Positions 4,375-20,647 of a DNA stretch of 25,733 nt are shown here, piece by piece. Source of the stretch: a virus (Duplodnaviria; Heunggongvirae; Uroviricota; Caudoviricetes); the IMG/VR virus record IMGVR_UViG_2585427772_000005, positions 1 through 25,733 of that record. One strand, given 5' to 3'. The first letter of the stretch is position 1, and every line of letters begins with the position of its first letter. Both the position numbers and the translations under genes were made by a program. The notes under the pieces were generated by a model. That model made no database searches, had not been told where the DNA came from, and saw only the letters and a program-made list of their open reading frames with translations.

Positions 4375-4932
4375 TCAACAATGAATTTTTAGCAATTGCT
4401 CCACAGTCATATTTTTAATTGCGCTCCGGTTTACAAGAGTCCATCCTTGTTTCTCCAGATAAAACCGGAAGGTATCCAGGGTGCAGACCATTGCGCCGTC
4501 AGGAACGGTTTCAGTGAATTTGATATTGCCGTGTTCGTCGAGACGGATAACCAGGGTGCGTCCGTCCCCGTGAATCATTTTGTCGGGAGACGGGGCGTTA
4601 TTCTGGCGCAGTTCTGCTTCCATGCGGTCGAACTCAGCAATGTATGCCTCTTTAAATGCAGCGGCTTTTTTGCCAGTGAAGCCCATCACCAGGAAAACGA
4701 AGCCGTTTTTGGTGATTTGGTACATTGGGAGTTTGCGCCCGGTTGAGTCGGTGTATTCGCTCGACACAAAATTGTGCTCAGTGAATTTTGCTGAACAGTC
4801 CAGATTGCGAATTTTATCCAACACTCGTTCGTGGCGTTTGCCAAAGAACTCGGCGATCGCAACAGACGTAGTGACAGCGCGACCATTTTCGATGGTTACG
4901 TCAGGGTGAGAAAGGGTAAGGATAGTAGCCAT
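4375..4932 (-). CDS. Rha-family phage regulatory protein
   Basis: The ORF track extends this to 5229, but the internal ATG at 4932 is preceded by GGAGG at an 8-nt spacing, and the conserved Rha N-terminal pattern (AIAEFFGKRHERVLDKIRNL ... MYQITKNGFVFLVMGFTGKKAAAFKEAYIAEF) begins just after it. The upstream 99 codons look like a non-coding in-frame extension. Confidence 0.7.
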   Translation of the reverse strand: MATILTLSHPDVTIENGRAVTTSVAIAEFFGKRHERVLDKIRNLDCSAKFTEHNFVSSEYTDSTGRKLPMYQITKNGFVFLVMGFTGKKAAAFKEAYIAEFDRMEAELRQNNAPSPDKMIHGDGRTLVIRLDEHGNIKFTETVPDGAMVCTLDTFRFYLEKQGWTLVNRSAIKNMTVEQLLKIHC

Positions 4933-5775
4933 GATGGCAGCCTCCGCGATGAATTTGATTAACTCACCACCGAGGTTTTCCACGACCATAAGGGTGGTGA
5001 GACGTACAGGGGTGGAAATACCGGTCATCACGGAACCCGGCCAGCCTTGCGGCTGCCCTGCACGCCCCACCATAATGCGAATGTGGCTGTGCTTAACGCA
5101 TAAAAAAACCGCCTGAGCGCGGTTATGCGCCGTGAATGATTTCGGGTTTCCACGCCCGGCACCCGTTTTATGAGGTGCAGGTGCACTATAATTCCACCCG
5201 TTCTGGTTTTCAATAGCTACATTCAACATTTTCTCTACCTTTCATCACCGAAGTGAACTTTGTTGATGCGGTGCCTGGTGCCTCCAGGTGACGTTAACCA
5301 GTTAACAATTAACGTCGGATACAGAGCATTCCCGTTACGCCCGTAAAAGACCGCTTGTTTTAACTGTTCCGCGTGCGCTGAGCCGCATTCACCGCATCAC
5401 AAAATTCACTTTAAAAAGGGCGGCAGAGCAGTCACGGAGTAGAACTGATACCGCCAAAAGTCACCAGAAAATTGATAACAGAGGGCGTTGCAGCGGAGTT
5501 GTCACTTAAGCGTATGGTCAACCTGACAACCCGGTGTCCTCAACGGGGGAAGAAATACCCCCGCCATACTTACCGCCGCGCCATTTCGCGGATTGCCACA
5601 ACCGGAAGCGCACGATCGAATTAAATTTAACGACGACCTATACAGAGAGACTAACTTCTCCGGGCGCTTTCGTGTTATGCCCTGACTTTTCAGGGATATA
5701 TCCTTTTCAGTAAACTGTCAGTGCCGGATTCTTATCCGTGTCCGGCGCACGCACTCTACCTCACCTGTGAATAAA

Positions 5776-11970: not shown

Positions 11971-12229
11971 ATACAGCGAACGCTATTGGTTTAGTTGGAT
12001 ATTTACTGTGCCGGACAAAAACGGTTTGCAGGGAAATCTTAGTTAAGTAGAATGACTGTGGGTGCTTGAGGCTATCTGTCTCAGGCATGAACACCAAAAG
12101 GCAGATAGAGAAAAGCCCCAGTTAACATTACGCGTCCTGCAAGACGCTTAACATTAATCTGAGGCCATATCTATGCTCTACACACGTAGGTTAGCCTCTT
12201 ACGTGCCGAAAGGCAAGGAGAAGCAGGCT

Positions 12230-12385
12230 ATGAAGCAGCAAAAGGCGATGCTAATCGCCCTGATCGTCATCTGTTTAACCGTCATAGTGACGGCACTGGT
12301 AACGAGGAAAGACCTCTGCGAGGTACGAATCCGAACCGGCCAGACGGAGGTCGCTGTCTTCACAGCTTACGAACCTGAGGAGTAA
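12230..12385 (+). CDS. hok: Hok/Gef-family type I toxin (HokD/RelF-like, 51 aa)
   Basis: The translation MKQQKAMLIALIVICLTVIVTALVTRKDLCEVRIRTGQTEVAVFTAYEPEE has the Hok-family hydrophobic helix and conserved LC-E-R core, and matches the chromosomal HokD/RelF sequence as I recall it. The track ORF starting at 12173 is an in-frame upstream extension. A strong terminator follows. Confidence 0.8.
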   Translation: MKQQKAMLIALIVICLTVIVTALVTRKDLCEVRIRTGQTEVAVFTAYEPEE

Positions 12386-12778: not shown

Positions 12779-12837
12779 GTTATAATACGTGAGCCAGCCT
12801 GAACAACTGGCAACCTGCAGCGCCATTGGAGATGACA

Positions 12838-13110
12838 ATGGCGCATAATTTCAAATTTCGCAATTCTGATTCTGCCTTTGCCAGCAGGCACGGGTGGCGT
12901 TCTCACGCATTCAAATATGACTGGTATCAGCACGATCCCTGTACTGAAGAACAGGCCGAATGGCTGATTCATAACTACCGCAGACGTGGATATGAGTTTA
13001 GGAAAGCCCTCACCCTCGATTATCGTCACTGGATAATCTACGTCAGACTCCCTTATTCCGAACGCCCACCGCGTCCGTCCCGCACATTCCAGCAACGCAT
13101 CTGGAGGTAA
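12838..13110 (+). CDS. Hypothetical nin-region protein, about 90 aa
   Basis: GGAG 6 nt upstream of the ATG at 12838. It ends 1 nt before the DUF968-like gene on the same strand. The larger antisense ORF 12706..13236 has low-complexity S/T/R-rich composition. Confidence 0.5.
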   Translation: MAHNFKFRNSDSAFASRHGWRSHAFKYDWYQHDPCTEEQAEWLIHNYRRRGYEFRKALTLDYRHWIIYVRLPYSERPPRPSRTFQQRIWR

Positions 13111-13111
13111 C

Positions 13112-14158
13112 GTGCGGGTATTACTTCGACCTGTTCTGGTACCGGAACTCGGGCTGGTGATCGTTAAGCCGGGCCGTGAATCCATGCCGGTATTCCACAA
13201 TACCCGGGTACTGGTGGAGCCGGAACCGAAAAGCATGCGTAATCTGCCGTCCGGGGTCGTTCCTGCCGTTCGCCAGCCGCTGGCGGAGGATAAATCATTA
13301 CTGCCATTTTTCAGCGACGAACGAGTGATTCGTGCTGCTGGTGGCGCTGGCGCATTGTCTGACTGGTTACTGCGCCATGTTAAATCCTGCCAGTGGCCAC
13401 ACGGCGATTATCACCACAGTGAAACCGTCATTCACCGTTATGGTACCGGCGCAATGGTGTTGTGCTGGCACTGCGACAACCAGCTGCGCGACCAGACCTC
13501 CGAATCACTCGGGCAACTTGCTCACCAAAACCTGTCTGCATGGATGATTGACGTCATACGCCATGCAATGAATGGCTCGCAGGAACGGGAATTATCGCTG
13601 GCTGAATTATCCTGGTGGGCGGTCCGCAATCAGGTGGCGGACGCGCTACCGGAAGCGGTATTACGTCGTTCGCTGGGGTTGCGTGCGGAAAAAATCCGCT
13701 CAATGTACCGTGAAAGCGACATCGTACCGGGAGAGCAGACCGCCACCAGCATACTGAAGCAGCGCACAAAAAATCTTGCGCCGCTGCCTCACGCCCACCA
13801 GCAAAACCCGCCACAGGAAGAGACGGTGGTCAGCATTGCCGTTGATCCTGAGTCTCCGGAATCTTTCATGAAACGACCTAAACGTCGCCGCTGGGTTAAC
13901 GAGAAATACACACGCTGGGTGAAGACACAGCCGTGTGCGTGTTGTGGTAAGCCAGCCGACGATCCCCATCACCTGATTGGTCATGGTCAGGGCGGAATGG
14001 GGACAAAATCTCACGATATTTTCACGCTACCGTTGTGTCGGGAGCATCACAACGAGCTTCATGCGGATCCTCTGGCGTTCGAAGAAAAGCATGGTTCTCA
14101 GGTTGATTTAATTTTTCGTTTTCTTGATCACGCCTTTGCAACTGGCGTGCTTGGGTAA
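13112..14158 (+). CDS. DUF968-like prophage protein with a C-terminal HNH/zinc-finger-like motif
   Basis: 348-aa ORF. The C-terminus has CACCGK...DPHHLIGHGQGG...LCREHHNELH, the Cys/His pattern typical of DUF968 proteins (YdfU-like) that sit upstream of rusA and Q in E. coli prophages. Confidence 0.7.
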   Translation: MRVLLRPVLVPELGLVIVKPGRESMPVFHNTRVLVEPEPKSMRNLPSGVVPAVRQPLAEDKSLLPFFSDERVIRAAGGAGALSDWLLRHVKSCQWPHGDYHHSETVIHRYGTGAMVLCWHCDNQLRDQTSESLGQLAHQNLSAWMIDVIRHAMNGSQERELSLAELSWWAVRNQVADALPEAVLRRSLGLRAEKIRSMYRESDIVPGEQTATSILKQRTKNLAPLPHAHQQNPPQEETVVSIAVDPESPESFMKRPKRRRWVNEKYTRWVKTQPCACCGKPADDPHHLIGHGQGGMGTKSHDIFTLPLCREHHNELHADPLAFEEKHGSQVDLIFRFLDHAFATGVLG

Positions 14159-14170
14159 AAGAGGTGACTG

Positions 14171-14545
14171 ATGCTCATAGATTTGGTTTTACCTTACCCG
14201 CCGACGGTGAACACTTACTGGCGACGCCGTGGCAGCACATATTTTGTATCAAAAGCCGGGGAGCGTTATCGCCGGGCAGTGGCGCTTATTGTTCGCCAGC
14301 AGCGGCTGAAATTAAGCCTGTCCGGAAGGCTGGCGATAAAGGTGATTGCAGAGCCACCGGATAAGCGTCGTCGCGACCTGGACAATATCCTGAAAGCACC
14401 GCTGGATGCGCTGACGCATGCGGGAGTGTTAATGGACGATGAGCAGTTTGATGAAATCAATATCGTTCGTGGTCAGCCAGTATCTGGTGGACGTATGGGG
14501 GTGAAGATTTACCCCATAATGCATGAAGAGCAGGTCAAAAAATGA
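14171..14545 (+). CDS. rusA: Crossover junction endodeoxyribonuclease RusA (Holliday junction resolvase)
   Basis: 124-aa ORF with AGAGGTG upstream. Conserved RusA pattern (PPTVNTYWRRRG ... DKRRRDLDNILKAPLDALTHAGVLMDDEQ). Confidence 0.85.
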   Translation: MLIDLVLPYPPTVNTYWRRRGSTYFVSKAGERYRRAVALIVRQQRLKLSLSGRLAIKVIAEPPDKRRRDLDNILKAPLDALTHAGVLMDDEQFDEINIVRGQPVSGGRMGVKIYPIMHEEQVKK

Positions 14546-15363
14546 AACTGGAAGATTTACCGAAATACTACTCCCCAAAATCCCCTGGCCTGACCGATGC
14601 ATCGGCCTCAACGTCAAAAGATGCGCTGAGTATCACTGATGTGATGGCCGCGCAGGGCATGACACAGAATCGGGCTGAGATGGGGTTTTCTGCGTTCCTG
14701 GGGAAAATGGGCATCAGTATGAATGACAGGGCGCGGGCAACAGAATTACTGGCAGATTATGCACTCAGTCGGTGCGATCGTGTGGCGGCGTTGAGAAAAC
14801 TTCCGGCAGAAATAAAACCGGTAGTGATGCGCATTATGGCTTCGTATGCGTTTGAAGATTATGCCCGTAGCGCGGCGAGCAAAAAACAGTGCCCCTGCTG
14901 TCACGGAAAAAAATTTATTGAAAGCGAGGTTTTTACAAACAAGATCCAGTATCCGGATGGTAAGCCACCAGTGTGGGCAAAGTGCACAAAAGGCGTGTAT
15001 CCGTCTTACTGGGAAGAATGGAAAAAAGTCAGGGAGGTGGTAAAAGTTGCCTGTCCGGAGTGTGGCGGAAAGGGTGAGGTTTCCACCGCCTGTAAGGATT
15101 GCCGTGGGCGTGGTGTCGCCATTCATCGTGAAGAGTCGGTAAAACGTGGTATGCCTGTTATCAGAGATTGCCAGCGTTGTGGTGGTCGTGGCTGTGAAAG
15201 GCTGCCATCAACGGAGGCATTTAATGCCATATGCAAAGTGACGAGTGCTATCACGCTTGATACGTGGAAAAAATCAGTGAAACGCTTTTACGATACGTTG
15301 GTGGTTCGGTTTGACATTGAAGAGGCATGGGCGGAGCGGCAGTTAAAGAGGGTAACGCGATAG
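14542..15363 (+). CDS. Late-gene antitermination protein Q (Cys-rich zinc-binding Q family)
   Basis: 273-aa ORF coupled to rusA by an ATGA overlap. Multiple CxxC pairs (CPCCHGK, CPECGGKGE, CKDCRGRG, CQRCGGRGC), placed immediately upstream of a PR'-like promoter. Confidence 0.8.
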   Translation: MKLEDLPKYYSPKSPGLTDASASTSKDALSITDVMAAQGMTQNRAEMGFSAFLGKMGISMNDRARATELLADYALSRCDRVAALRKLPAEIKPVVMRIMASYAFEDYARSAASKKQCPCCHGKKFIESEVFTNKIQYPDGKPPVWAKCTKGVYPSYWEEWKKVREVVKVACPECGGKGEVSTACKDCRGRGVAIHREESVKRGMPVIRDCQRCGGRGCERLPSTEAFNAICKVTSAITLDTWKKSVKRFYDTLVVRFDIEEAWAERQLKRVTR

Positions 15364-15368
15364 TGTTG

Positions 15369-15397
15369 TTGATTTTTCCCGAATCTGTGGTAAATTT
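15369..15397 (+). promoter_or_regulatory. Candidate late promoter PR' / Q-utilisation region
   Basis: TTGATT, a 16-nt spacer, then TAAATT preceded by TGTGG. Lambda PR' also has a TAAATT -10 element. It starts 6 nt after the Q stop. Confidence 0.45.
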
Positions 15398-15443
15398 GCT
15401 CTAACGATGGGCGTTTTATGCCTGACGTTAGAAGATTTTTTAC

Positions 15444-15469
15444 ACCCCGCCGCCTGGCGGGTTTTTTAT
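15444..15469 (+). terminator. Rho-independent terminator (tR'-like) downstream of the candidate PR'
   Basis: CCCGCC-GCCT-GGCGGG hairpin followed by TTTTTTAT. Confidence 0.6.
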
Positions 15470-15589
15470 GACTGAAATCGCGTCAGTACAGTAAACGCGC
15501 TGGTGGCGGTGAATACCTGTCTTTCAGCTTGCTGGCTTTTTCGACAAGAGTTATTGGTGTGTCACGTTAACCGGAAAAGGGAAAAAGAC

Positions 15590-15787
15590 ATGCTAAAACA
15601 GCAGGATATGACAGAAACCGCCAGAGTGGTGTTTAATGAATTAAGCGTTACCGAACCGGCGACAGTCGGGGAGATAGCGCAGAATACTTACCTTTCACGC
15701 GAACGCTGCCAGTTAATACTGACCCAGCTGGTTATGGCGGGTCTGGCAGACTATCAGTTCGGTTGTTACAGACGCCTTCCGCAGTGA
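15590..15787 (+). CDS. Small putative winged-helix DNA-binding protein, 65 aa, in the late leader
   Basis: AAGGG 8 nt upstream of the ATG at 15590; the track start at 15503 lacks an SD. HTH-like segment TVGEIAQNTYLSRERCQLILTQLVMAGLADY. It is bracketed by two intrinsic terminators. Confidence 0.45.
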   Translation: MLKQQDMTETARVVFNELSVTEPATVGEIAQNTYLSRERCQLILTQLVMAGLADYQFGCYRRLPQ

Positions 15788-15799
15788 AGGCTTTTTTAT
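15774..15799 (+). terminator. Rho-independent terminator overlapping the stop codon of the small winged-helix ORF
   Basis: GCCTTC-CGCAGT-GAAGGC hairpin followed by TTTTTTATT. Confidence 0.6.
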
Positions 15800-15814
15800 T
15801 TGTGGTAAATGGGC

Positions 15815-15845
15815 GGCTGGTGGGTGTTAGGGGCACCCACCAGCC
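15815..15845 (+). other. 12-bp perfect-stem hairpin (GGCTGGTGGGTG / CACCCACCAGCC) with a 7-nt loop
   Basis: Direct reading. No U-tract follows. It lies just after a second copy of TGTGGTAAAT. Confidence 0.5.
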
Positions 15846-15937
15846 ATCTGCTCATGCGTTGGGTTCACAAGCAAACCTCAGGCCCACTGCTTTGCGCAAA
15901 AGCAGAATGAGCCTATCAGAGACAGGCTTAATGATCC

Positions 15938-16987
15938 ATGCTTAATACTGTAAAAATATCCAGTTGTGAGTTAATCAACGCCGACTGCCTGGAATTTATC
16001 CGGTCGTTACCCGAAAATTCTGTTGACCTGATAGTCACGGACCCGCCGTACTTTAAAGTGAAGCCTGAGGGCTGGGATAACCAGTGGAAGGGCGACGATG
16101 ATTACCTGAAGTGGCTGGACCAGTGTCTGGCGCAGTTCTGGCGGGTGCTGAAACCTGTCGGAAGTCTTTACCTGTTCTGTGGTCATCGCCTGGCATCTGA
16201 TATCGAAATCATGATGCGTGAACGCTTCAGTGTGCTGAACCATATTATCTGGGCGAAGCCGTCCGGACGCTGGAACGGATGCAACAAGGAAAGCCTGCGG
16301 GCGTATTTCCCCGCCACAGAGCGCATTCTGTTCGCGGAACATTATCAGGGGCCGTATCGTCCGAAAGATGCCGGGTATGCGGCGAAGGGCAGTGCACTGA
16401 AACAGCATGTGATGGCCCCGCTGATTTCTTACTTTCGTGATGCGCGCGCGGCCCTGGGGATAACGGCAAAACAGATTGCAGATGCCACAGGAAAGAAAAA
16501 CATGGTGTCGCACTGGTTCAGTGCCAGTCAGTGGCAGCTACCGAACGAAAGCGATTATCTGAAATTACAGTCGCTGTTTGCCCGGGTGGCAGAAGAGAAA
16601 CATCAGCGCGGTGAACTGGAAAAGCCCCACCACCAGCTGGTGGATACGTATACGTCACTGAACCGGCAGTATGTGGAGCTGCAGAGTGAATATAAGCATC
16701 TGCGGCGGTATTTTGGTGTGACGGCGCAGGTGCCGTACACGGATGTGTGGACACATAAACCGGTGCAGTTCTATCCCGGGAAACATCCGTGCGAAAAACC
16801 GGCAGAAATGCTGCAGCAGATAATCAGCGCAAGCAGTCGTCCGGGTGACCTGGTTGCAGATTTTTTTATGGGCTCAGGTTCAACGGTAAAAGCTGCACTG
16901 GCGCTCGGGCGTCGTGCGATTGGCGTTGAACTGGAGACCGGACGTTTTGAGCAGACAGTCAGGGAAGTTCAGGATTTAATCGTTTGA
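15938..16987 (+). CDS. Orphan DNA methyltransferase (probably N6-adenine; DPPY motif IV N-terminal to FxGxG motif I)
   Basis: 349-aa ORF. DLIVTDPPYF near the N-terminus and DFFMGSGSTVKAA near the C-terminus. No restriction-endonuclease-like partner ORF is adjacent. Confidence 0.85.
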   Translation: MLNTVKISSCELINADCLEFIRSLPENSVDLIVTDPPYFKVKPEGWDNQWKGDDDYLKWLDQCLAQFWRVLKPVGSLYLFCGHRLASDIEIMMRERFSVLNHIIWAKPSGRWNGCNKESLRAYFPATERILFAEHYQGPYRPKDAGYAAKGSALKQHVMAPLISYFRDARAALGITAKQIADATGKKNMVSHWFSASQWQLPNESDYLKLQSLFARVAEEKHQRGELEKPHHQLVDTYTSLNRQYVELQSEYKHLRRYFGVTAQVPYTDVWTHKPVQFYPGKHPCEKPAEMLQQIISASSRPGDLVADFFMGSGSTVKAALALGRRAIGVELETGRFEQTVREVQDLIV

Positions 16988-17036
16988 AACGGATGAGATT
17001 GCAGAATTAATTACGCACCATTATTATTCTGCTTCC

Positions 17037-17112
17037 GGCCCTTTAGCTCAGTGGTGAGAGCGAGCGACTCATAATCGCCAGGTCGCTGGTTCAAATCCAG
17101 CAAGGGCCACCA
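17037..17112 (+). tRNA. tRNA with CAU anticodon, most likely tRNA-Ile2 (lysidine-modified, reads AUA)
   Basis: Cloverleaf read by hand: acceptor GGCCCTT/AAGGGCC, D-arm GCTC..GAGC, anticodon loop CTCATAA, T-arm GCTGG-TTCAAAT-CCAGC, encoded CCA. Closely resembles E. coli tRNA-Ile2 as recalled. Confidence 0.85.
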
Positions 17113-17212
17113 TCACAAACCGCCATTAGCTTATCAGGAAGAGCAGACGACACGATAACAGGGTTGTTGGTGCGGGGGCGGGTCCCCGATGACGGTCCAT
17201 TATCGGTATTCA

Positions 17213-17289
17213 GCGTTGTTAGCTCAGCCGGACAGAGCAATTGCCTTCTAAGCAATCGGTCACTGGTTCGAATCCAGTACAGCGCGCCA
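17213..17289 (+). tRNA. tRNA-Arg (anticodon UCU, reads AGA/AGG)
   Basis: Cloverleaf: acceptor GCGTTGT/ACAGCGC with one G-U pair, anticodon stem ATTGC/GCAAT, loop CTTCTAA, T-arm ACTGG-TTCGAAT-CCAGT, encoded CCA. Confidence 0.9.
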
Positions 17290-17396
17290 TATTCATTCTT
17301 CCAGATTCCTTTCGGCAGAGCCTTATACTGAAATATACCTGGCTCAGGATATTGTTGAAAATATTATATGTTTGTCAAAAATAAAAGTTCTGTTAA

Positions 17397-17753
17397 GTGT
17401 TGATTGAGTGTTTGTTATACGGTCTAATGGTTTTTTCAGCATTAAATATTTATCATTCATATGGTGTGGGTAGAGTGAATATTGATGAGGCGTCGGGGTG
17501 TTTCATCCTTAGGCAGCGTATTGATATAGTCAATGCAGAACGAGCAAAGGCCTTCAGCCGTTTGACAGTTTTGTTCTGTACTCCTGATCGTCTTTCGGGA
17601 AGAGACGTTATTATTCTGAATAGTGATGCTATACAGAGGGTTTGCGATGAGTTCATGGTGGCTAATTCAGAATTATTTGCTCTTGTTCAGGAGTACAACA
17701 GAATAGCCAGGACCTGTGGTATGGATGAACTTCGGATTACTCATCTGGGGTAG
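17397..17753 (+). CDS. Hypothetical cargo ORF, up to 118 aa; start uncertain
   Basis: Open frame in the AT-rich segment. No convincing SD before either the GTG at 17397 or the ATG at 17427. Composition is protein-like. Confidence 0.3.
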   Translation: MLIECLLYGLMVFSALNIYHSYGVGRVNIDEASGCFILRQRIDIVNAERAKAFSRLTVLFCTPDRLSGRDVIILNSDAIQRVCDEFMVANSELFALVQEYNRIARTCGMDELRITHLG

Positions 17754-18144
17754 ATACATATCTGGATTATCACCGGTTACGGTAAAAAGTGATTGCTTAC
17801 TGTTTTTGTGAATGGCATTGCAGCAGCCGGATAATGTCAGTGCTGGCTGACGGTGTGCTGGTGGCGGGGGTGGTGGTTGCTGCTTTCCCGTTGCTGAAAA
17901 AGAAAACGCCAGACTGTTAGCCGGGTATCAGTTAGCGGGAGAAATTTTTAAATACTTCACAATTCAGGCGGTTGACTGTTGTCTGGTTTGCGGGGAGTTT
18001 GTTAAAAGAAACTGGCATGGTGAATCCCCCTGTGCGGAGGGGCAATCAGCGAGTAGGTATATGGGATAATCGCGGATTCAGGTGCTGGTACTGAATTCAC
18101 CGGGAGGCACCCGGCACCATGCAATGGCACATAGCGCCACTCTC

Positions 18145-18178
18145 CAGCCCCTCTCCGGAGGGGCTGTTTATATTGATT
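18145..18178 (+). terminator. Strong rho-independent terminator
   Basis: 9-bp perfect GC-rich stem CAGCCCCTC / GAGGGGCTG with loop TCCG, followed by TTTATATTGATTTT. It lies 23 nt beyond the 3' end of the minus-strand ORF 18201..18536. Confidence 0.65.
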
Positions 18179-18200
18179 TTGTCAGATGTGAGTAAACTCC

Positions 18201-18536
18201 TTATGGACTTTGTTGTTTTAGCCCATAAGGACATATTTGCAGAGTGCAACGGTTATTAAAGCATTCATTCAATACGTTATCTGTATTTGTAGGGCATTCC
18301 TGGCTGTTTTTGATTAAATTCCAGAATGTTTTATTGAATGGTACTACGTTGTAAATGGTTACAGGCAGCACTTTGTTATTGAGCATGATGCCTGTGTGAG
18401 TCAGTGTAAATATACTTTCAGGAGGTAAGAAAGCATCCGATTGATACCAGATTATTAATTTTATTTTACTCCATATGACTGAAAAAGATATTCCGCATGA
18501 TGGCTGGATAACTGTATCAATCACAATCCACTTCAT
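18201..18536 (-). CDS. Hypothetical AT-rich cargo protein, 111 aa, on the opposite strand to the late operon
   Basis: AAGGAA 6 nt upstream of the ATG at 18536. Cys-containing C-terminus ([16 protein letters not shown]). A 245-bp AT-rich promoter-like region lies upstream. I recognise no family. Confidence 0.5.
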
Positions 18537-18781
18537 TTAGTTTCCTTGTTTATGCCTTGCTGGTGATGTTCTGAAAAGTATAAATGATATTTTTGATTGT
18601 AAACCATAGAGCAGAATTATTTTTCTGATGTTGTTTATTGTTTATTTAAATGCAGGGTGGTTTATATCTCGTCTTGTAGTTTATCCATGCATATCTGCTT
18701 GATGATGAGGTTTTTAATTAAGGTATGGTTTTGTGTTTTTTCTGTATTACATGTCAGGTATTTTAAAGAATCATTTTTCAG

Positions 18782-20647
18782 ATGGTGGAAAGAACCATGG
18801 CATTTAAACACTATGATGTTGTCAGGGCGGCGTCGCCGTCAGATCTTGCGGAAAAGCTGACACATAAACTGAAAGAGGGCTGGCAGCCGTTTGGTAGTCC
18901 GGTGGCCATAACCCCTTATACCCTGATGCAGGCGATTGCAGCAGAAGGTGATGTGGTCGTCAGTGGTGCAACTGAGCCGGAGTGGTACTACGTCATCGTA
19001 CTGGCCGGGCAGTCCAATGCCATGGCTTACGGTGAAGGGCTTCCGCTTCCGGATTCATACGATGCGCCCCATCCGCGCATTAAGCAACTGGCCCGTCGTA
19101 ACACAGTGACTCCCGGTGGTGAAGTATGCGTATTTAACGACATCATTCCTGCTGACCATTGTCTGCATGATGTTCAGGATATGAGTACGATTAACCATCC
19201 CCGGGCTGACCTGAGCAAAGGGCAGTACGGCTGTGTCGGACAGGGCTTACATATTGCCAAAAAACTGCTTCCGTATATCCCTAATAACGCGGGGATCCTG
19301 CTGGTACCATGCTGTCGTGGTGGTTCGGCATTCACCCAGGGCACGGAGGGGACATTCAGCGAGTCCACGGGGGCCAGTCAGGATTCGGCTCGCTGGGGAG
19401 TGGGTAAGCCGTTATATCAGGATCTGCTTTTCCGCACGAAGGCAGCATTGCAGAAAAACCCGAAAAACGTTTTGCTGGCGATATGCTGGATGCAGGGGGA
19501 ATTCGATATGACGAATGCCAGTTACGCCCAGCAGCCAGCAGCATTTCTTGCAATGGTACAGCAGTTCCGTGCTGACCTTGCCGGGCTGGCGGCGCAGTGT
19601 CACGGTGGAAGTCCGGCATCAGTCCCCTGGATTTGTGGCGACACGACATACGCGTGGAAACAAGAACACGGTACGCAATATGAAGTGGTATATGGTGCAT
19701 ATAAAGGTAAAGAATCCCAGCAGATTTATTTTGTTCCCTTTATGACCGATGGTAGCGGAGTTAATACACCGACAAACAACCCGTCAGAAGATCCTGATAT
19801 TGTCGGGTCTGGTTATTACGGTTCGGCATCCCGAACGAACAAAAACTGGGTATCATCAAATCGCCCGACGCATTTCAGCTCATGGGCGCGTCGTGGCATT
19901 ATTCCCGATCGTATGGCAACCGCTATTCTGAACGCAGCCGGGCGCACCTCAGCCTTCATCAGTGGTAAGGCACCGGAAATCAAACCCTCGCCCGGCGGCG
20001 ACACGCCATCGGGTCCGTCTGCAGATACGTCCGTTCGCACAATCTCCCTGCTGCCGACAGCCGGAGAGGCTGCTGCGCAGGGCTGGAGCATTAAGAATGG
20101 CGGAATTCAGTTGTCAGATGGTGTATTTAAGATCACCAAGCAGAGCAATAAAGCCTGGTCCCTGACGCGCCCGGTGGATGACGCAGTCTCCCTGCTGACA
20201 CGGGGTGGCAGACTGAGCTGTAAGTTTCGACTGTCAGGCGCACTGACCAACAACCAGTTCGGTCTGGGAATTTATCTGTATACCGATGTAGCGTTACCTG
20301 ACGTCGTGGCGATGACCGGGACTGGTAACCCGTTCCTGATGTCGTTCTTCACCCAGACCACAGACGGCAAACTGAATCTGATGCATCACAAGAAAGCCGG
20401 AAACACAAAGTTGGGCGAGTTCGGGAATTACAGTAACGACTGGCAGACGCTGGAGCTGGTGTTCACCGCCGGCAGTGCCACGGTTACTCCGAAACTGAAT
20501 GGAGTGGCTGGCCCGGCATTCCAGGTCATAAAAGACAGTCTGACACTGGGGCTGAATGCGCTGACGTTAACTGATATCACTAAAAATGCCGCGTACGGCG
20601 TCGATATCGGCAGCCTGGTGCTGGAAATCAATAATCCCGCAGCATAA
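18782..20647 (+). CDS. NanS-p-like sialate O-acetylesterase (DUF1737 N-domain, SASA/SGNH esterase domain, C-terminal lectin-like domain)
   Basis: 621-aa ORF. VIVLAGQSNAMAYGEG is the SGNH/SASA catalytic-serine motif. Same architecture and position (after the tRNAs) as the nanS-p/yjhS-like genes of Stx phages. The alternative start at 18797 (MAFKHYDV) has a modest SD. Confidence 0.8.
   Translation: MVERTMAFKHYDVVRAASPSDLAEKLTHKLKEGWQPFGSPVAITPYTLMQAIAAEGDVVVSGATEPEWYYVIVLAGQSNAMAYGEGLPLPDSYDAPHPRIKQLARRNTVTPGGEVCVFNDIIPADHCLHDVQDMSTINHPRADLSKGQYGCVGQGLHIAKKLLPYIPNNAGILLVPCCRGGSAFTQGTEGTFSESTGASQDSARWGVGKPLYQDLLFRTKAALQKNPKNVLLAICWMQGEFDMTNASYAQQPAAFLAMVQQFRADLAGLAAQCHGGSPASVPWICGDTTYAWKQEHGTQYEVVYGAYKGKESQQIYFVPFMTDGSGVNTPTNNPSEDPDIVGSGYYGSASRTNKNWVSSNRPTHFSSWARRGIIPDRMATAILNAAGRTSAFISGKAPEIKPSPGGDTPSGPSADTSVRTISLLPTAGEAAAQGWSIKNGGIQLSDGVFKITKQSNKAWSLTRPVDDAVSLLTRGGRLSCKFRLSGALTNNQFGLGIYLYTDVALPDVVAMTGTGNPFLMSFFTQTTDGKLNLMHHKKAGNTKLGEFGNYSNDWQTLELVFTAGSATVTPKLNGVAGPAFQVIKDSLTLGLNALTLTDITKNAAYGVDIGSLVLEINNPAA

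Follow-up and report, generated by a model that had tools for sequence, protein, structure and literature searches.

A prophage copy of the adenine methyltransferase M.EcoGI in a lambda-type late operon, preceded by a conserved structured leader

We analysed a stretch of 25,733 nucleotides of viral DNA (Caudoviricetes; IMG/VR record IMGVR_UViG_2585427772_000005), hereafter the window, in which a DNA methyltransferase (MTase) gene lies between a late control region of lambda type and two tRNA genes. The locus and its downstream flank contain the following features:

14542–15363, plus strand: late antiterminator Q of the lambda-Q family with a zinc-finger-like insert, 273 aa (PF03589 Antiterm, E=2e-49)
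15369–15408, plus strand: candidate late promoter PR', its putative function read from alignment with the lambda PR' region of NC_001416
15446–15468, plus strand: intrinsic terminator, tR'-like, a 6-bp all-GC stem CCCGCC/GGCGGG (15446–15461) followed by TTTTTTAT
15590–15787, plus strand: conserved 65-aa ORF, phrog_331 (E=1.4e-37), possibly a winged-helix protein
15774–15800, plus strand: second terminator-like hairpin, GCCTTC-CGCAGT-GAAGGC (15774–15791) followed by TTTTTTATTT, overlapping the stop codon of the small ORF
15810–15937, plus strand: conserved structured leader of the MTase mRNA, ~130 nt, from a 50-sequence alignment
15938–16987, plus strand: MTase, an M.EcoGI-identical beta-class N6-adenine methyltransferase, 349 aa, ATG start
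17037–17112, plus strand: tRNA with anticodon CAT, ileZ-type (ARAGORN Met(cat); Rfam tRNA, 72.5 bits)
17213–17289, plus strand: tRNA-Arg (TCT), argO-type (ARAGORN, Rfam)
17397–17753: ORF, phrog_2873
17986–18175: sRNA STnc100 (Rfam, 132 bits)
18201–18536, minus strand: IraM/PmrD-like anti-adaptor gene
18782–20647: SASA/DUF6645 esterase gene, a hybrid whose 5' part is of lambdoid type and whose 3' end is that of a P2-like-prophage copy

The MTase gene begins 575 nt 3' of the Q stop codon and 150 nt downstream of the 65-aa ORF, and it ends 50 nt before the CAT tRNA, homologues of which are labelled tRNA-Ile in RefSeq. The prophages of O104:H4 and the Stx2a prophages carry three tRNAs where two are found here, the extra one being a second Arg tRNA, argN. 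The interval 17300–18780 occupies the position of stxAB in Stx phages. Several small RNAs map elsewhere in the window: C4 antisense RNA, isrK and DicF lie within or beside a Rha/Ash-type gene at 4375–5229 (RNA cluster 4990–5469, minus strand), and a sok antitoxin RNA lies at 12060–12235 on the plus strand, around where hokD is annotated in homologous prophages.

The initial annotation had described an orphan MTase with DPPY and FxGxG motifs, placed between the late promoter and the tRNAs and with no restriction-endonuclease-like ORF nearby, and each of these points holds. Pfam found no restriction-endonuclease family among the ORFs of the window, PADLOC found none in the 10 ORFs scanned with it, and the DUF968 protein gave only a weak, sub-threshold HNH-like match. 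Related prophages contain no endonuclease partner of the MTase either. The locus thus differs from a Type II restriction-modification system, in which an endonuclease gene is adjacent.

By its sequence, the gene is real and intact and encodes a prophage enzyme that has already been characterised. The protein matches PF01555 (N6_N4_Mtase) over residues 29–340 (Pfam; E=2.7e-44, 152.2 bits, cutoff 26.7) and the PADLOC model MTase_II PDLC03265 (E=4.4e-167). No Pfam family beyond PF01555 was found on it, and thus no Dam-type profile, PF05869 included (we take such profiles to be PF05869 or the alpha-class MethyltransfD12 family). The catalytic DPPY motif is N-terminal (aa 35–38) and the FxGxG SAM motif, here FMGSG, is C-terminal (aa 310–314); 271 residues separate them, and not roughly 100 as first annotated. 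Using phmmer, we found PDB matches in two stretches, aa 8–114 and aa 281–333, with E-values down to 2.5e-25, and these relatives are all beta-class enzymes (M.BceJIV, M.RsrI, CcrM, MboIIA and M1.HpyAVI).

An AlphaFold2 model of the MTase has a mean pLDDT of 73.6, with 80–95 in the core, and the best PDB matches to the modelled core in Foldseek were CcrM, M.BceJIV, MboIIA and RsrI, with a probability of 1.00. Together, the model and these matches point to a Rossmann-type catalytic fold, as in the solved members. The middle part of the model, ~aa 146–255, is all-helical (helices 146–173, 177–184, 190–193, 204–224 and 231–255, where pLDDT is only 50–85), in line with the published model of M.EcoGII, in which the target-recognition domain (TRD) spans aa 160–237 (PMC11551740). 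The solved beta-class enzymes CcrM (6pbd), M.BceJIV (8urk, 9c3u), M.RsrI (1eg2) and M1.MboII (1g60) have the Rossmann core in common with the MTase, but their identity to it is ~20% and they lack its ~145-residue helical insert (aa 135–280); all of them are sequence-specific.

Which enzyme is encoded here? The protein is identical to RefSeq WP_000935536.1, an accession that also covers a nucleotide-identical copy of the gene in ST648. Exactly two places in the genome of E. coli O104:H4 C227-11 match the MTase family, one of them M.EcoGII and the other WP_000935536.1, and the gene for the latter (AAF13_RS11310) is one synonymous base apart from the gene in the window. One of the loci that we compared (L012) encodes the exact protein and shows 100% identity to all O104:H4 genomes, C227-11 included, across 21 kb. 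The M.EcoGII sequence was machine-read from Table S1 of the SUPREM paper, and three reading errors (NHHIWA, GRRRAIG and TKVPQYYPG) were mended against 120 natural homologues. Six candidate sequences were then checked by exact look-up, and one (P0135) was found among O104:H4 proteins, where it is present as AFS73976.1 and AKE83937.1. The MTase and M.EcoGII (P0135) are identical at 333 of 349 residues (95.4%) without gaps, and 333 of 349 is also the published figure for M.EcoGII and M.EcoGI, which is encoded by another prophage of the same strain C227-11 (PMC5778455). Because C227-11 has only two copies and the two figures match, we identify the MTase as M.EcoGI; the name comes from elimination and the 333/349 match rather than from a REBASE record.

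M.EcoGII (EGT69837.1 / AKE83937.1) has the same motifs, length and domain plan as the MTase, and the 16 substitutions between them fall in the TRD (three), the linkers (eight) and the core (five), with none in DPPY or FxGxG. The gene is widespread. By Megablast, 1966 of the 5426 complete E. coli genomes searched carry it, with at most six copies each, and 597 records carry it at an identity of at least 99%. A further 38 records are from phages, mostly Stx2-converting phages, phiP27 and 1720a-02, and the cluster that holds the exact protein at 90% identity counts 5932 members.

Published work describes M.EcoGII of E. coli O104:H4 C227-11 as a beta-class enzyme of 349 aa that acts on adenines in every context, and reports both M.EcoGI and M.EcoGII to be non-specific for all adenines (PMC5778455). 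For M.EcoGI, this is known through PMC5778455 (Murray et al. 2018) citing Fang et al. 2012, and detailed biochemistry is published for M.EcoGII alone. The two enzymes are not expressed in the lysogen and their expression is deleterious (PMC5778455). Reconstructed ancestors remain non-site-specific. Enzymes of this family serve as laboratory reagents, M.EcoGII being on sale as a non-specific adenine methyltransferase. Since the protein is identical to M.EcoGI, no methylation motif is expected for the MTase, to judge from its sequence. The proposal of the initial annotation that the region between the motifs sets specificity is therefore not borne out for a protein identical to non-specific M.EcoGI and 95.4% identical to M.EcoGII, and the epigenetic role that it had also considered is unlikely in a heritable form, since lysogens do not express the enzyme and its expression does harm (PMC5778455).

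When would the MTase be made? The Q protein of the window is 31% identical to lambda Q (E=1e-37). Right after its stop codon comes the block GGTAAATTTG....AACGATGGG, which lines up with the PR' region of lambda, the promoter-proximal pause element included. The candidate PR' consists of a −35 element TTGATT (15369–15374), a −10 element TAAATT (15391–15396) and a −10-like pause element AACGAT (15403–15408), and the stretch from the −10 element to the pause element, TAAATT...AACGATGGG, matches lambda PR' in the alignment. The promoter is seen only through this alignment: it was unflagged by a simple sigma-70 scan (8/12 consensus matches), which found no sigma-70-like sites on the plus strand of 15200–17354 and whose promoter-like hits were no more frequent than in shuffled sequences. 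The tR'-like terminator lies ~45 nt past the predicted start site. The stem of the second terminator-like hairpin is kept with compensatory changes (7 loci); its T-run is not conserved. As in the lambda late operon, a Q homologue, a PR' with −10 and pause elements and a tR'-like terminator are thus found here and, by this anatomy, the MTase is the first large gene of a late operon in which a lambda-type Q/PR' and two intrinsic terminators precede it.

The order Q, small ORF, MTase, then tRNA, stx or lysis genes recurs in phiP27, WGPS2, 1720a-02, the M.EcoGII prophage, Salmonella, Pantoea and Klebsiella; holin and endolysin genes stand directly 3' of the MTase gene in Pantoea, and tRNAs and stx follow it in Stx phages. 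The module of small ORF, MTase and tRNAs is identical or nearly identical in nucleotides behind three unrelated Q families (PF03589, PF06323 and PF06530), and near-identity to the prophages with unrelated Q genes (PF06323, PF06530) sets in at 15449, at the terminator. Because this near-identity holds despite the unrelated Q genes, the cassette is a module of the late operon that passes from one Q/PR' module to another, and on these alignments 15449 is the module boundary for recombination. The M.EcoGII gene likewise sits behind a Q gene, a small ORF and the conserved leader, but its Q belongs to a different family (PF06530), two reverse-strand genes are inserted at the locus and a separate PF05869 Dam gene is carried elsewhere in that prophage. 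The M.EcoGI prophage of C227-11 has DUF968, RusA, the 273-aa Q, the small ORF, the MTase, tRNAs, IraM and the esterase in common with the window and is 98.1% identical to it in nucleotides over 12795–20632, whereas the early region is only 85–90% similar or unrelated. It also carries three tRNAs where the window has two (Ile-CAT and Arg-TCT), and it continues with holin, lysozyme and terminase genes where the window continues with P2-like tail genes.

What would a non-specific adenine MTase do in a late operon? We are confident in an explanation in which M.EcoGI is made late and blanket-methylates the phage DNA against restriction. RNA polymerase modified by Q would proceed from PR' through the terminators only after induction, as the anatomy suggests, so that the MTase would be made late. 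It would then methylate the replicating phage DNA before packaging, and DNA modified in this way would blunt those Type I, II and III systems of the next host whose restriction is sensitive to adenine methylation. In the lysogen, the terminators, and possibly the structured leader too, would hold the toxic MTase off. Anti-restriction at induction, as suggested in the initial annotation, is also the role that has been proposed for this enzyme family (PMC5778455, PMC12707154) and, like the literature, we infer it. [quoted passage not shown]

Does this particular prophage benefit from the enzyme? The MTase could be carried along unused by a defective or rearranged prophage, intact by descent and protecting no progeny here, which we consider rather unlikely. 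From the 3' end of the esterase to 25733, the window contains the P2-like tail genes gpR, S, V, W, J and I, and no holin, endolysin or terminase gene was found there with Pfam. The window is a near-perfect match to lambdoid copies until ~20500 and a perfect match to a P2-like prophage copy from ~20200, which sets the crossover within the 3' end of the esterase gene (~20200–20500). The P2-side junction is present in 375 genomes; the whole window was found in no complete genome, at most 73% of it lying in one place. Because its late region runs into P2-like tail genes and not into lysis and head genes, this prophage may make no progeny of its own, and the wording "cryptic prophage" is used in the M.EcoGII paper. 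The junction, however, arose either when two paralogous esterase genes recombined or through their chimeric assembly, and the ORF, the leader, Q, PR' and both tRNAs are all intact. A nucleotide-identical gene is moreover found in prophages with lysis and terminase genes downstream. The question bears on the use of the MTase in this strain, not on the identity of the gene.

Alternatively, the main role of the enzyme could be something other than DNA protection, with RNA (transcripts or rRNA) as its target or with the MTase as a host-shutoff or toxic effector in lytic growth. M.EcoGII does act in vitro on single-stranded RNA and RNA/DNA hybrids (PMC5778455), but its activity on RNA is ~100-fold below that on DNA (V0 of 0.12 versus 11.12; SUPREM paper, Table S3). 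Residue 179 of the MTase is Q, the state of clade I (the M.EcoGII clade), and an E179Q change cut the RNA activity of SUPREM. The deleterious effect of expression and the poor transformation by heavily methylated DNA are both compatible with a toxic effector. A precedent for an RNA target comes from Stx phages, where M.EcoPA8orf6770P-PNB-2 prefers 16S rRNA and has a small winged-helix neighbour (PMC10810198). Like the MTase, this enzyme and Mu Mom are encoded by prophages, stay off in the lysogen and have toxic or regulatory effects when expressed, but their families and chemistry are unrelated to those of the MTase. We considered whether the MTase could be the Stx-phage "16S rRNA methyltransferase" itself and rejected this, the latter being a Dam-like gene of the early region with a GATC-type annotation (PMC10810198).

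A small partner protein would be available here as well, in the form of the possible winged-helix 65-aa ORF. Of 78 species-representative loci with DNA on the upstream side, 55 have this ORF at 83–168 nt before the MTase, in a range that runs from Escherichia to Xenorhabdus, and homologues of it also occur in phages phiP27, WGPS2 and 1720a-02. The ORF is missing from the other 23 loci and thus is not obligatory, and M.EcoGII is active alone. Hits of the 65-aa ORF to TrmB/MarR (winged-helix) profiles are sub-threshold only, Pfam returned nothing above threshold for it, and its single-sequence AlphaFold2 model is poor (pLDDT 53). Identity to the copy beside M.EcoGII is only 52%, with residues 12–36 as the divergent part. 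Taking both sides together, we regard a main role on RNA or as a toxin as improbable.

A sequence-specific orphan MTase, with a motif read by the central domain and serving to protect against one system or as an epigenetic regulator, we dismiss almost entirely: many family members are called "site-specific DNA-methyltransferase" in NCBI/nr, the central bundle, as modelled, is of helix-turn-helix type as in site-specific M.PflMI, and 11 of the 16 substitutions relative to the characterised M.EcoGII lie in the linkers and TRD, but that name is a label given to families automatically, C227-11 carries the exact protein as its second copy, both copies being reported as non-specific, and the reconstructed ancestors are non-site-specific as well, the SUPREM ancestor being ~70% identical to the MTase. 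Of the relatives whose recognition site is confirmed, M.PflMI (CCANNNNNTGG) is the nearest (PMC11551740), and it has the same beta-class motif order, a similar predicted structure and a helical TRD; it is likened to the MTase via M.EcoGII, to which it is only ~27% identical, and it lacks the long charged interdomain linker.

Under the preferred explanation, late synthesis of non-specific M.EcoGI, how is a toxic enzyme kept in check? The leader that precedes its start codon is strongly conserved, with a mean column identity of 82% over 50 loci from more than 25 genera, and it is retained even at loci without the 65-aa ORF. We used 50 sequences because a first alignment of seven varied too little; the Xenorhabdus and Photorhabdus homologues, which have a different and shorter leader, were excluded. 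Two folds can be drawn, with these elements in window coordinates:

15810–15814 with 15882–15886: helix P0
15815–15845: helix P1
15847–15875: helix P2
15888–15903: helix P3
15908–15930: helix P4
15809–15814 with 15850–15855: helix P0' of the alternative fold
15862–15872 with 15926–15937: anti-start helix of the alternative fold

The three-helix junction P0/P1/P2 and the hairpin P3 are supported by covariation: (i) 92.6% of cells are paired, against 29–46% when the partners are slid; (ii) double changes occur at 13 pairs, against 3.8±1.4 in shuffles; and (iii) one P2 pair is CG in 26 sequences, AU in 10, UA in 8 and UG in 4. The alternative fold, which excludes the P0/P2 fold, is equally conserved (95.3% paired, with P0' at 100%), and its anti-start helix adjoins the AUG. 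It is also the minimum free energy structure of the leader sequence here (−63.4 kcal/mol, z=−4.1). We also considered P4 as a hairpin that sequesters the SD; it is unsupported, being mostly invariant and only 80.6% paired. A GATC (Dam site) is located directly 5' of the MTase start codon (TGATCCATG; 15941–15944 region, alignment columns 141–144), within the 3' arm of the anti-start helix, and is kept in nearly all 50 leaders.

Rfam 15 gave no match to the leader at gathering thresholds, and the sole plus-strand match inside it at E≤10 was a short P26 fragment with E=1.7. In IMG/VR, 80 of 81 instances of the leader motif have an MTase homologue downstream, which in 79 instances starts 130–132 nt after the first base of the motif; in the 81st, merely 166 nt of DNA remain. 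Within IMG/VR, the leader is thus seen only upstream of this MTase family, and it looks like a dedicated regulatory RNA. Tentatively, it may be an undescribed cis-regulatory switch for the toxic MTase, in which the P0 and P2 fold would compete with P0' and a helix that buries the start codon, and in which the balance would be set by a ligand such as SAM or SAH, by the enzyme, which can bind RNA, or by the 65-aa protein. The leader is possibly the sole new item at the MTase locus.

What does the locus mean for this enzyme family? As a further copy of a very common prophage gene, the MTase changes little. The label "site-specific DNA-methyltransferase" is misleading for the M.EcoGI/M.EcoGII family, and searching for a methylation motif would be in vain. 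By contrast, the 65-aa ORF and the conserved leader offer handles for probing when such an MTase is made, whether it really hypermethylates phage DNA and how a toxic enzyme stays off, and the leader RNA is the one item at the locus that is worth pursuing.
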